Positions 552 through 42,230 are shown, counted from the first letter of the stretch. The stretch is 64,000 nt of DNA from Eledone cirrhosa (GCA_964016885.1 OZ024751.1:51088001-51152000), one strand, 5' to 3'. Notes: generated by a model from the letters alone, not told the origin. A program made the numbers and translations.

Positions 552-733
552 AATATGGTTTTATAAATATAGTTTCCATTTATTTATTACCATTGAATAT
601 TTACTCCAGAAGGCTGTTGAGTGCTCTGAATCAGTTATAAACATTTATATTTGTTGAATTTCCAACAAATTAATTATCCCTTCTACTGGAATTGAACTAT
701 CAGCACAGTTGAGGTATGTCATACATCAATTTA

Positions 734-803
734 TGTATTTTATCTGATGAGGACGTACTGAAAAAACAGCACAGTACCTCCGAAATATATATAATAAAAT
801 ATA
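734..803 (+). ncRNA. Minimal type I hammerhead ribozyme (family A, second tandem unit)
   Basis: TATTTTAT-CTGATGA-(GGA.GTACTG/CAGTAC.TCC)-GAAA-TATATA-TA-ATAAAATA; 246 nt downstream of the first motif. Confidence 0.85.
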
Positions 804-1039
804 TTTTGATTACGTGAATGTCTACATTTATTAATATTTTGAATTAATATATATATATATATATATACATATATATATATAGTATTAAGGATACTATTTA
901 TGGTTATGTATATAATAAAACCTTTTATAGTTATATATATTTTAAACTCTAAATAGTGAAAGACAGTAATTCATTACTATCTTATTACCAGTAAGATAAA
1001 TAGCTCAATGTAATAACATCAGTTGTTTTACAGAGCAGT

Positions 1040-1708
1040 TATATAGAAATTACAGGAATCAAAGTTCAGTTTAAATCATTTATTTGCTTACAATTGTTTC
1101 CTCCAAACCGAGGTTTGGATTCTTCGGAGCAACTATTTAGTGATTTTTTACATACTTGACCTCCTTTTCAACACAAGAGACATATAAAAACATATGTATA
1201 TATTGACCCACAGTGGGTTGACATCCATCATAATAATATAGCATGGCAATTTACATACAAAGGTTACATATTAAAGGACAAAATTAAAGTTAAAATTAAA
1301 ATTAAAAAAATAAAACATTGGCAGTTTATGAAGATAAAGCAAGAGGAAAGTTTAGAGTAGTCAGTGTATGAAACAGTCTCACGTGTGGCATGCACGCGTG
1401 TCTTATTTATACAGGATTATAGTGCGGCAGATTGTTACATGTAAAACAAGCAGTGAAAGCAGGCAATCAATAGCATCATGGGGGCTGTATTGTTAAAGCA
1501 TTTTTCACACACATCTGTACGATATATAAGCCCACTGTGGGTCAATATATACATATGTTTTTATATGTCTCTTGTGTTGAAAAGGAGGTCAAGTATGTAA
1601 AAAATCACTAAATAGTTGCTCCGAAGAATCCAAACCTCGGTTTGGAGGAAAAAATTGTAAGCAAATAAATGATTTAAACTGAACTTTGATTCATGTAATT
1701 TCTATATA
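1040..1708. mobile_element. Fold-back element (inverted arms 1040-1217 / 1531-1708), each arm carrying a variant HHR (1084-1132 minus; 1616-1664 plus); Penelope pLTR-like
   Basis: ~178-bp near-perfect inverted repeat. Motif TTGCT-CCGAAGA-(TCCAAACC/GGTTTGGA)-GAAA-CAATTG-TA-AGCAA. Confidence 0.75.
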
Positions 1709-1984
1709 TATATATATATATTATATATATATATATATATATATATATATATATATATATATATATATATGTATATATATGTATATAAATATGCATATAT
1801 ATATATATATATATGTATATATATTAAACTAGTTAGACCATTATTCAACAGAGTATTCAATACTTGGGATAGTAGAGTGTGTCTATGTTAGAAAGAGTCT
1901 TTCTAATATATATGTGTGTGTGTGTGTATATATATATATATATATATATATATATATATATACACACACATACACATATATATT

Positions 1985-2177
1985 ATCATCATCATCACCA
2001 TCATCATCACCATATGCATCAATATCTTCTGCCTACCACCACCACCACCATCACTACCACCACCACCACCACCACCACGACTACCACCATCACCACCACC
2101 ACCACCACCATCATCACCACCATCATCACCACCACCACCACCACCACCAACACCACCAACACCACCACCACCACCAC
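1985..2177. repeat. (CAT)n/(CAC)n trinucleotide tract
   Basis: Directly visible; produces spurious poly-H/T/P ORFs. Confidence 0.95.
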
Positions 2178-2472
2178 TGTTCCTTGCTATATCCTTAGCA
2201 GGCTTACAAGAGATGAAAAACTTAAACTAAACTAAACTGAAATAAACTGAAATAACATATAAAATAAAATAATACTTTGGTATATTTAAAATTGGGATGT
2301 TGTGCTATAAATTTATGCCAACCTCGAGACATAATTAATCTCAGTTTGTTTCAAGTATATTGCAAATAAATTCTATTTAATGAGAAAACGGACTTCTTCC
2401 TTTCTTTCTTTCTTTCTTTCACTTTACTCTTCTTCTTCTACTTCTTCTTCAAAGCTCTCTTATCGTCTTCAG

Positions 2473-2496
2473 ACATATATAACGAGGAAACAGCAG
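2473..2496 (+). other. Candidate 24-nt micro-exon of a host gene
   Basis: Pyrimidine tract + TTCAG acceptor, 24 nt, CAG|GTATTT donor; length divisible by 3; no transcript support. Confidence 0.25.
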
Positions 2497-3064
2497 GTAT
2501 TTGACTAGCATTCACAAAATAAACAGACAACCAAAGAAACATGCAAATAAATGAATAAATAAATAAATAAACAATCAAATAAAAAAAAGAAAGAAAAACA
2601 GATAGACAGAAAGAAAAAAAAAGTAAAGAAAAAGCCAAATGACAAACAGAAATAATAAAAAGAAAATACAAGCTGAAATTCTAAAAATAAAAATACAAAA
2701 ACCTAACCATGCAAAACAAAACAACTCCATTCCATCCTAAATATGTTGCTTCAGTTATTTTAAAACAAAAGTCGTTTAAAAACTACGTGATGTGTATCGA
2801 AATTGGACCTTAAACAGATGAAGGAAGACAAAAAACTAAATTTATTTCTAGATAAACGATAAATACTATTTTCAATGATTGAATTCAAAGTTACATTTCA
2901 TAAATAGATAGATAGAAAAATAACAGATAAATAAATAAGTTGATTTGTTTCTCTCTTTCTCTCTCTCTCTCTCTCTCTCTCTCTCTCTCTCTCTCTCTCT
3001 CTCTCTCTCTCTCTCTCTCTCTCTCTCTCTCTCTCCTCTCTCTCTCTCTCTCTCTCTCTCTCTC

Positions 3065-40960: not shown

Positions 40961-40967
40961 GCATTAC

Positions 40968-41125
40968 ACACAAGGCCAGCAATTACCTAGTACATTACTG
41001 GTACTTTATTTTATCGATCCCGTAAGGATGAAAGGAAAAGTTAACCTCGGCAGGATTTGAGATCAGTCCGTAAAGGGACTGCAAAACATGGCGTCTGACC
41101 CTCTACCGAAACTGCCAATCCACAA
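40968..41125 (-). mobile_element. SINE S2, degenerate
   Basis: CTGGTACTTTATTTTATCGA..AACCTCGGCAGGATTTGA. Confidence 0.8.
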
Positions 41126-41127
41126 CA

Positions 41128-41290
41128 CTTCAAAAGGCATGCTTGCTGGGAACAGCAAGAACCCTCCAATACGTCCTGAATATCTGAGGCTGCAGGTAGC
41201 GGCTTGATATTCATTCCAACAAACTTTCCAGTTAAATAACATCAATGACTGAGACTCAAAGAACAACAATAATAATAATAACAATTATAG
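41128..41290 (+). mobile_element. 3' end of the R4/Dong family seen at 7293-8420
   Basis: Matches 8253-8410 and ends in (AAT)n. Confidence 0.88.
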
Positions 41291-41788
41291 CAATAACAAT
41301 AACAATAATTTCAAAAATTTAATAATTATTAGTTCTAACATAATTTTTTGGTATGTTGATGTTAACAACAACAACAACAACAACAACAACAACACTACAA
41401 TGACAACAGCAGTTACAATGATGAGAATGATGATGGTGATAATGATGATAACAATAATGGTAAAACTACATAAAAAATATATGTATATTGAAGAAATATT
41501 AAAAATAAATTGTAAAAGAAACCACAAAAAAAAAAGCTAAAAAAATACAAAATTCTTAAGATTCCAAAACTTTTGACTTGTGGCCAACTTTACATATATT
41601 TCAATGGTGCTGTTTCAATTCTGCCTTCGAACGATGAATTCTGATTAATTGTATACTTAAAATTAATTACTGCCGTCAATTAGAAAAATGGCAAATTAAT
41701 TTTTGTTTTGTCAATTTCTTTTTATTAAAAATTGTATTGTTATTTATATTATTTGTTTTGTTTTTGTTTTTAGTTTTTTTTTCTTATG

Positions 41789-41959
41789 AAGTCATGTGAC
41801 CTATATTGTGGAATAAGGTGGGTGGGGTTTGATGTGGTTCAGTGTGGTTCAGTGTGTTGGTGTATTCACAAATATATATGGGTATATATATATACCTATA
41901 TGTATATCAAACCCCACCCACCCCACCAAACTTGTTCCACAATATAGGTCATATGACTT
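41789..41959. repeat. Short inverted-repeat element (MITE-like or fold-back)
   Basis: AAGTCATGTGACCTATATTGTGGAA..GGGTGGGGTTTGAT mirrored at 41906-41959. Confidence 0.7.
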
Positions 41960-42019
41960 ACCACACTTTCTTTCTTATTTATATATATATATATACATAT
42001 ATAGAAGAGCTTCTACAGG

Positions 42020-42230
42020 ACTACAATGAGCACTCGATGCTCTTGGGGAGCAGAGTATCAATAATAATAATATATAAGGGAACTAAGAATCAGTGTTGCC
42101 TCATATACATATTTAATTACATATGTTTCACTGCCGATCAGCTCAAGGAACGATCGATCAATGATCGATCCTGACTCTGTAATCGGAAGCTCCTCCGATA
42201 TGTGTTATCATGTAGACTCACACCTAAGAG
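42020..42230 (-). mobile_element. Family C element with long-stem-II HHR-like motif (42116-42199)
   Basis: AT-CGGAGGA-GCTTCCGAT...ATCGGCAGT-GAAA-CATATG-TA-AT; downstream part resembles 9110-9190. Confidence 0.55.

Follow-up and report, generated by a model that had tools for sequence, protein, structure and literature searches.

A Twin Bulged Hairpin in Hydra-Clade Penelope-Like Elements of Eledone cirrhosa: A Likely Start Signal for Reverse Transcription

The retroelement ends crowding a 64,000-nucleotide (nt) stretch of the Eledone cirrhosa genome (OZ024751.1:51088001-51152000; host genome 3.0 Gb), hereafter “the window”, carry a small bulged hairpin which is almost certainly a conserved feature of Penelope-like elements (PLEs) of the Hydra clade. 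This hairpin, present twice between a hammerhead ribozyme and the start codon, likely represents the binding site of the reverse transcriptase (RT)–endonuclease (EN) of these elements, which, judging by hairpin structure and insertion ends, would begin copying a few bases 5' of the hairpin. The window is AT-rich and dense in (TA)n, and its hammerheads, of the minimal type I kind described in PLEs (PMC4209133), sit in short fragments ending in (TA)n; their families are designated below by letters. Statements on the cited papers refer to those parts of their text that were available.

An earlier note on the window had pointed to a shared motif, YYGAGYRCT, located in the same orientation 45–100 nt downstream of the cleavage site in otherwise unrelated hammerhead families. 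The window contains 17 matches to this motif vs. 3.6 ± 1.9 expected (100 dinucleotide shuffles, none of which reached 17); two of them, at 55717 and 57199, do not follow a hammerhead and are fortuitous. Five of the seven sites cited in the note (617, 10141, 17451, 19601-19609, and 42029-42037) lie exactly as placed, but the family E site on the minus strand is shifted by one base (31220-31228), and the sequence TCGAGCCCT at 18934, although present, violates the consensus of the note itself. The common orientation held for all cited sites: each follows a type I hammerhead, or the 3' half of one, on the sense strand. The range of spacing proved too narrow: the distances from cleavage site to motif measured in the window span 40–127 nt (40 in D, 43–45 in G, 70–73 in A, 70 and 127 in E, 80 and 104 in C), reaching 283–284 nt where a short interspersed element (SINE) intervenes (A at 3876 and F at 17451).

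Enrichment by both position and strand was also evident outside the window, in 120 regions of 10 kb each (1.2 Mb), where hammerheads were found blind to the motif. The first hammerhead finder was too strict and was relaxed (reversed-sequence control, 14 vs. 137 at a score of at least 11); from 467 candidates, 32 families were kept that had a (TA)n end and, in addition, either occurred at two loci or scored high. The strict motif was found downstream in sense orientation in 6 of the 32 families (in one of them, it probably stems from a neighboring insertion), in antisense in none and upstream in one; the relaxed GAGYVCY gave 10, 5, and 5 families, respectively. Far from universal, the signal is real but confined to a subset of hammerhead families; those known from short copies alone cannot show it. 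Families B and H, offered in the note as weaker cases, were rejected as members: the GAGC of B is the 5' strand of a different hairpin, and H is devoid of the RCTC arm described below. A coding origin could likewise be dismissed, as the motif precedes the ATG in all full elements. Families H and F3 (window 10585 and 46335; locus L081) have GCTATTTCA(G)AGCRTT in common on the downstream side of their hammerheads, which may be the signal of another clade. Loci L081 and L086 display a retrozyme-like tandem array of hammerhead units of about 310 bp, without the motif.

The motif turned out to be one half of a hairpin. RCTC, the complement of GAGY, was found upstream of each motif, and the whole structure has the form RCUC-[stem-loop]-UN-GAGY-RCU, with YYGAGYRCT as its 3' strand and the “YY” as a two-base bulge, because the interior bases pair with those directly preceding YY. 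Across the 1.2 Mb, pairing in this 2-nt register was recorded at 83 of 418 GAGYRCT sites (18 of 179 clusters); in the five other registers (0, 1, 3, 4, and 5), the same sites gave 7–21 (0–9 clusters), and four control motifs at the 2-nt register gave 0–10 sites and at most 6 clusters. When sites were picked without an inner-stem criterion, inner pairs 1–3 were present in 19, 17, and 17 of the 22 multi-locus clusters (shuffle p 0.006, 0.0004, and 0.0006) and in 31, 32, and 33 of all 51 clusters, singletons included. The inner stem covaries, its pairs being U-A, C-G, G-C, A-U, and G-U; the outer pair, counted over distinct variants, is A-U in 42, G-C in 9, G-U in 4, and mismatched in 4. U occupies the first bulge position in all but one of 21 hand-picked families, and the loop is free in length (2–40 nt). 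Because of this variation in loop length, MAFFT alignments of 19 and 18 hairpins misregistered several 5' arms; therefore, the pairing was counted by scripts anchored on both arms rather than by a covariance model or an alignment-based count. Folded in isolation, 11 window copies showed an outer-stem probability of 0.75–1.0, with 0.5 at 3876 and 0.17 at 617; the copies at 10141, 15667, and 17451 are damaged. In an Rfam scan, none of the matches listed (150 of 246), which were of low complexity and miRNA-like, reached the gathering score, and none was a hammerhead family. The inner part of the second hairpin of E at locus L151 (minus strand) is a C-UUCG-G tetraloop.

The note had also considered dimerization, and the 8-mer is palindromic in several families. 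Pairing of two RNA molecules via the self-complementary GAGYRCUC, either for hammerhead activation (minimal PLE hammerheads are thought to act as dimers; PMC4209133) or for two-template copying, is very improbable: the predicted folds of most intact window copies have GAGY paired in cis (probability 0.75–1.0), and the eighth base of the GAGTACTC palindrome is often T or A. The same palindrome, or an extruded hairpin, might instead be recognized in DNA by the endonuclease, which would resolve the intermediate through staggered cuts and leave the tail on one side. Craig et al. 2021 (PMC8557442) attributed the tail to EN-mediated resolution, the tail of D. virilis was reported as necessary for EN recognition (cited in PMC11167929), and Neptune elements share the asymmetry of ends without the GAGYRCT hairpin. 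Still, recognition of DNA appears quite unlikely, given that the inner stem covaries while the loop is free, that G-U pairs occur on the sense strand (5 G-U vs. 2 C-A in inner stems; U-G adjoining the outer stem in 10 of the 21 hand-picked families), and that about half of the families lack a full palindrome.

The families in question are not unrelated: A, D, E, and G represent the 3' ends of one retroelement clade, with proteins 41–54% identical. By protein motifs, they are Hydra-clade PLEs, of which RWR/RWK, DKT, CxCX5C, CxxC, and CxH are described as the marks (PMC8557442). The single 709-aa open reading frame (ORF) of full E encodes an RT with a C-terminal GIY-YIG and contains RWR, DKT, CxCX5C, CxxC, and CxH (CNCRNRADC linker, CDLC..E, and N..CKH; no CCHH); the GIY-YIG fragment at 17490 belongs to this family (59,333 first-look candidates in the genome). 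Motifs like the linker/CxxC/CxH set of E are present in G, A, and four further families, and RWR and SDKT (DKT in place of DKG) in the proteins of E, G, A, and D. Sequence runs unbroken from the Hydra endonuclease to the family's own hammerhead in A and G, while the D tail continues into a Hydra ORF, its N-terminal 476 aa being 50–52% identical to E. As in the Hydra clade, the hammerhead lies in the pseudo-long terminal repeat (pLTR) and insertion is into (TA)n, the cores of E and G being variant. Three more Hydra families of the sample (L104, L156, and L031, judged by eye) carry the hairpin. Neither the endonuclease fragment nor full-length E protein had a significant match to a Pfam family.

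Several peculiarities of these families deserve mention. In the very abundant young family E, the hammerhead core CUGANGA is replaced by CAGAAGA (window 18823-18829, plus strand), and the hammerheads of G (L047:4900-5000, L246) and of L156 possess a U3-A8 core variant; in G, moreover, stem II is about 60 nt long and the loop of stem III is palindromic. Family F (L304-L309; window 5480-5626, minus strand) consists of non-coding units about 1.3 kb long without a match to PLE proteins, in which both hairpins are retained along with the hammerhead and which occur in partial tandems.

The order of features in full E is hammerhead, hairpin 1, long end, hairpin 2, and ATG. A second hairpin just past the long end was expected from E beforehand and then found in G (six copies), A (three copies), and F, so the hairpin occurs twice between the hammerhead and the ATG in full E, G, and A, and likewise twice in non-coding F. 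A short UA-rich patch directly precedes each hairpin, and insertions end at these patches. Mapped on real full-length copies (the counts include loci fetched by search), the (TA)n-bounded ends fell within −12 to +3 of the hairpin arm in 105 of 108 cases for E, 80 of 80 for G, and 46 of 48 for A (231 of 236 in total), with end modes at −6 to −9 relative to the arm and one E mode at −10. Every mode coincides with a TAT/ATAT patch; of the 30 TAT/ATA patches that these regions contain, no more than 9 are within −12 to +3 of an arm. For D, K, M, N, O, and the A subfamilies, most short ends map to −5 to −12 (in D, also to −17). Both hairpins lie 38–180 nt before the ATG in full elements, where they could serve translation or, as the note suggested, a promoter, with something else nearby setting the ends. 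Such a role in the 5' untranslated region (UTR) is very unlikely, as the spacing from hairpin to end is tight (6–9 nt) but that from hairpin 2 to the ATG is variable (38–87 nt), and non-coding family F retains both hairpins; moreover, a promoter leaves unexplained the covarying inner stem and the insertions ending beside the hairpin.

Head-to-head insertions typically combine one long and one short end. The unbiased set, drawn from the window and the 120 regions, contained 54 such insertions, of which 50 were long+short (50% expected, p 2e-11); over all loci, there were 90 of 96, the remainder being six short+short and no long+long pairs. The ORF may sit in either arm. Copies of F with two outward-facing motifs were rejected as long+long pairs in the three examined (L305-L307), because the inverted copy continues through hairpin 2 and thus has no end there. 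An origin of long ends from the 5' pLTR alone was rejected too: long-ended arms reach 1.7–3.2 kb into the ORF (L029, L154), and L151 is full length. The pairing also bears on RNA processing, i.e., on a host or element nuclease cutting just 5' of the hairpin, with RT starting at the new RNA 3' end by ordinary target priming. This would require no more than an RNA hairpin and predicts identical genomic ends, but it seems unlikely: in the sole PLE tested, initiation is internal and unshifted by 3' extensions (PMC11167929), and a cut alone would not yield the long+short pairing.

Binding of the RT–endonuclease to the hairpin, the reading preferred here, would operate as follows. The Hydra protein would nick the (TA)n target, and the target 3' end would anneal to the UA patch next to the bound hairpin, where copying would begin, the complementary DNA (cDNA) proceeding 5'-ward through the hammerhead. 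Priming at hairpin 1 would give the short end; priming at hairpin 2 would copy hairpin 1 as well and give the long end, and therefore the “tail” would be the interval between the hairpins. Each target strand would be primed at a different hairpin. The protein would probably do so as a dimer, its two subunits seated on tandem or circular RNA, and the truncated 5' ends of the two cDNAs would then be joined. For a long-ended copy to contain the entire ORF, either strand transfer or a template in tandem or circular form would be necessary; circularization of the template following hammerhead cleavage has been proposed (PMC4209133). In the Poseidon element PAc (PMC11167929), RT initiates internally at two sites bounding the tail, provided that RNA is present 3' of the start; it is predicted to be a dimer, and the target is cut and extended on both strands. 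The common cis signal postulated in the note, including its first candidate, RT recognition, fits the mapping of ends; what the note missed was that the motif is half of a hairpin, that it has a twin, and that its carriers share a clade.

A bolder extension, doubtful as a whole, is that PLEs integrate by two-site priming, in which each subunit of the RT dimer would grip one bulged hairpin resembling HIV-1 TAR and prime one of the two target strands. The grip might be exerted on tandem or circular RNA via basic patches (the RWR helix or the RRxRxRR stretch before WxNPP). The tail, the inverted ends, and the pLTR might all result from such priming, with other clades, such as Neptune N1-N3, possibly using their own hairpin at the same spacing.

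A number of observations weigh against hairpin-guided initiation. Inner pair 1 falls short of significance when all 51 clusters are counted (p 0.065), and the shuffle p-values are optimistic because clusters share ancestry. The second hairpins of E and F have just one inner pair; the second stem of D is GCAC/GTGC, with neither inner stem nor bulge, yet its long end is sharp. Another 56 alignment ends of E, G, and A had no (TA)n and were excluded from the 236 (about 20 of them continue into the ORF), and 79 of the 275 ends of the unbiased set are unclassified. No ORF was found upstream in the examined copies of C, F, K, M, and O, hence no link to a Hydra ORF. Among six published Hydra consensuses (File S7 of PMC8557442, judged by eye), Hydra-1_Crog has a variant (GCCC/GGGC; GCTC/GTGC; purine bulges), and the hairpins of Hydra-1_Obim and Hydra-1_Amil are weak. 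Four Neptune families have short and long ends, often as inverted pairs, without the motif; the GAGYRCT hairpin was not found downstream of the hammerhead-like core in any of five Neptune families (N4 being known from two copies only). The tails of N1-N3 (L192, L200, L222, L224-L235) carry a small hairpin of their own, ACTYGTGT-loop-ACAC, about 9 nt past the short end in N2 and N3, of which no copy was found after the long end (L222, L225, L229). Therefore, two ends and their asymmetry, already recorded as an optional one-sided tail (PMC8557442; PMC3846280), do not require twin hairpins in general.

In the remaining three of the six consensuses, from coral and sea cucumber, the hairpin is clear. 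Hydra-2_Amil (coral) and Hydra-2_Ajap (sea cucumber) carry it at their 3' ends, and Hydra-1_Ajap has two hairpins at the 5' end before the ATG, its 3' end stopping ahead of the first, as a short end would.

The elements described here share with the published Hydra clade of C-terminal EN+ PLEs (PMC8557442) their protein motifs, the location of the hammerhead close to the 3' end, insertion into (TA)n, copies that are inverted and truncated at the 5' end, and a one-sided tail; they differ in the length of the tail (30–40 nt published vs. 78–92 nt here) and in the ORF-plus-UTR unit of about 3.3 kb in family E. The words “hairpin”, “stem-loop”, and “bulge” are absent from the main text of that paper. 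Poseidon PAc (Frangieh et al. 2024, PMC11167929), similar in its two tail-bounding RT starts, the cutting and extension of both strands, the dimer, and the need for 3' RNA, belongs to another clade and starts inside the ORF in an “AC-rich stem loop”; a conserved twin bulged hairpin is not reported in its text, although the supplementary figures, which lie outside this statement, may show a related structure. The 3'-tail stem-loop shared by the long interspersed element UnaL2 and its SINE (PMC1636434) is likewise a conserved RNA stem near the start, which retrotransposition requires in cis and which non-autonomous partners share; unlike the Hydra hairpins, which are two, internal, and on the 3' (uncopied) side of the starts, it is single and near the RNA 3' end. 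A cis stem-loop needed by RT is of a known kind, whereas a twin internal hairpin that would set both ends is likely a new version of it. No description of the hairpin was found in the literature texts searched (subscription papers and Repbase reports being largely outside them, and figures not covered), nor in the available parts of bioRxiv 10.64898/2026.07.22.740005, PMC7229834, and PMC13282606.

As a lead only, the junction (a U-N bulge, then GAG paired to CUC) appears TAR/7SK-like. The arginine sandwich motif of HIV-1 TAR and 7SK (Pham et al. 2018, PMC6189040) also has a pyrimidine bulge followed by G, A, and G in a stem, and the prevalence of U as the first bulge base (20 of the 21 hand-picked families) is what a U.A-U triple with the second stem pair would need. 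The resemblance is confined to the local junction and missing from the Crog and D variants, and the Hydra bulge is on the 3' strand.

The features of the window are collected in Table 1. One SINE-like repeat lies between the hammerhead and hairpin 1 in copies of F (17187-17384), A (about 4150-3900, minus strand), and C (L313), at the position of the AT-rich short-end patch. The window also harbors a 47-bp satellite (36425-40797; 93 copies, 96% matches) and near-complete ORFs of two kinds of non-LTR retrotransposons (55904-58553, minus strand, and 58860-63070, plus strand), unrelated to the hairpin.

Table 1. Hammerheads, hairpins, and associated features of the window (positions counted from its first nucleotide).
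Feature	Position	Strand	Remarks
Family A type I minimal hammerhead, Hydra-clade PLE 3' end	491..550	+	Cleavage after 543; family linked to Hydra ORF
Hairpin 1, family A, ACTC-CAG/CTG-TT-GAGT-GCT	603..625	+	Motif at 617; low outer-stem probability (0.17)
Hairpin 1, family A variant, ACTT arm	3868..3890	-	SINE between hammerhead (cleavage 4160) and hairpin
Hairpin 2, family F, GCTC..TT-GAGC-GCT	5607..5626	-	Copy after long end in full F units
Hairpin 1, family A	8834..8856	-	Outer-stem probability 0.92-0.98
Hairpin 1, C-like family, long inner loop	9115..9167	-	Probability about 1.0
Hairpin 1, family G	10123..10149	+	First inner pair broken; hammerhead 5'-truncated, inverted
Hairpin 1, family G	12303..12329	+	Within short+long head-to-head insertion 12199-12377
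Family G motif	15667..15675	-	Rearranged copy, 5' arm lost
Family F hammerhead	17097..17172	+	Cleavage after 17166; inverted short copy 16202-16644
SINE-like insert between F hammerhead and motif	17187..17384 (approximate ends)	+	Other F copies without insert
Family F motif	17451..17459	+	ACTC arm scrambled by local inversion; intact in other F copies
GIY-YIG endonuclease fragment, autonomous Hydra-clade family E	17490..17858	+	
Family E hammerhead, CAGAAGA core	18818..18868	+	Cleavage after 18863
Hairpin 1, family E, GCTC/GAGC then CCT	18895..18942	+	Probability 0.98
Hairpin 1, family D	19601..19622	-	Within long+short head-to-head insertion 19563-19758
Family D hammerhead	19643..19694	-	Cleavage after 19650; Hydra ORF link
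Hairpin 1, family G	22998..23024	-	
Hairpin 1, family E	29718..29766	+	Within short+long pair 29630-29804
Hairpin 1, family E, loop enlarged by (TA)n expansion	31220..31324	-	
Hairpin 1, family A	33995..34017	-	Within long+short pair 33931-34350
Hairpin 1, family C, ACTC-TGCTC/GAGCA-TC-GAGT-GCT	42029..42056	-	Probability 1.0; ORF link not found
Hairpin 1, family G	52148..52174	+	

Penelope-like elements are the closest retroelement relatives of telomerase. How they choose their template and what causes the one-sided tail are questions on which the hairpin may bear: it is small, common to the E. cirrhosa genome and to coral and sea-cucumber elements, present at both proposed start points, and amenable to direct mutation in the published PAc assay. 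If the proposed role is true, a start signal bound by RT would account for the one-sided PLE “tail” and would explain the mobilization of very abundant non-coding ends, e.g., the tail of family D with over 9,000 exact matches. It would also provide a minimal cis signal for cargo RNAs and a structural tag for annotating the ends of Hydra elements.

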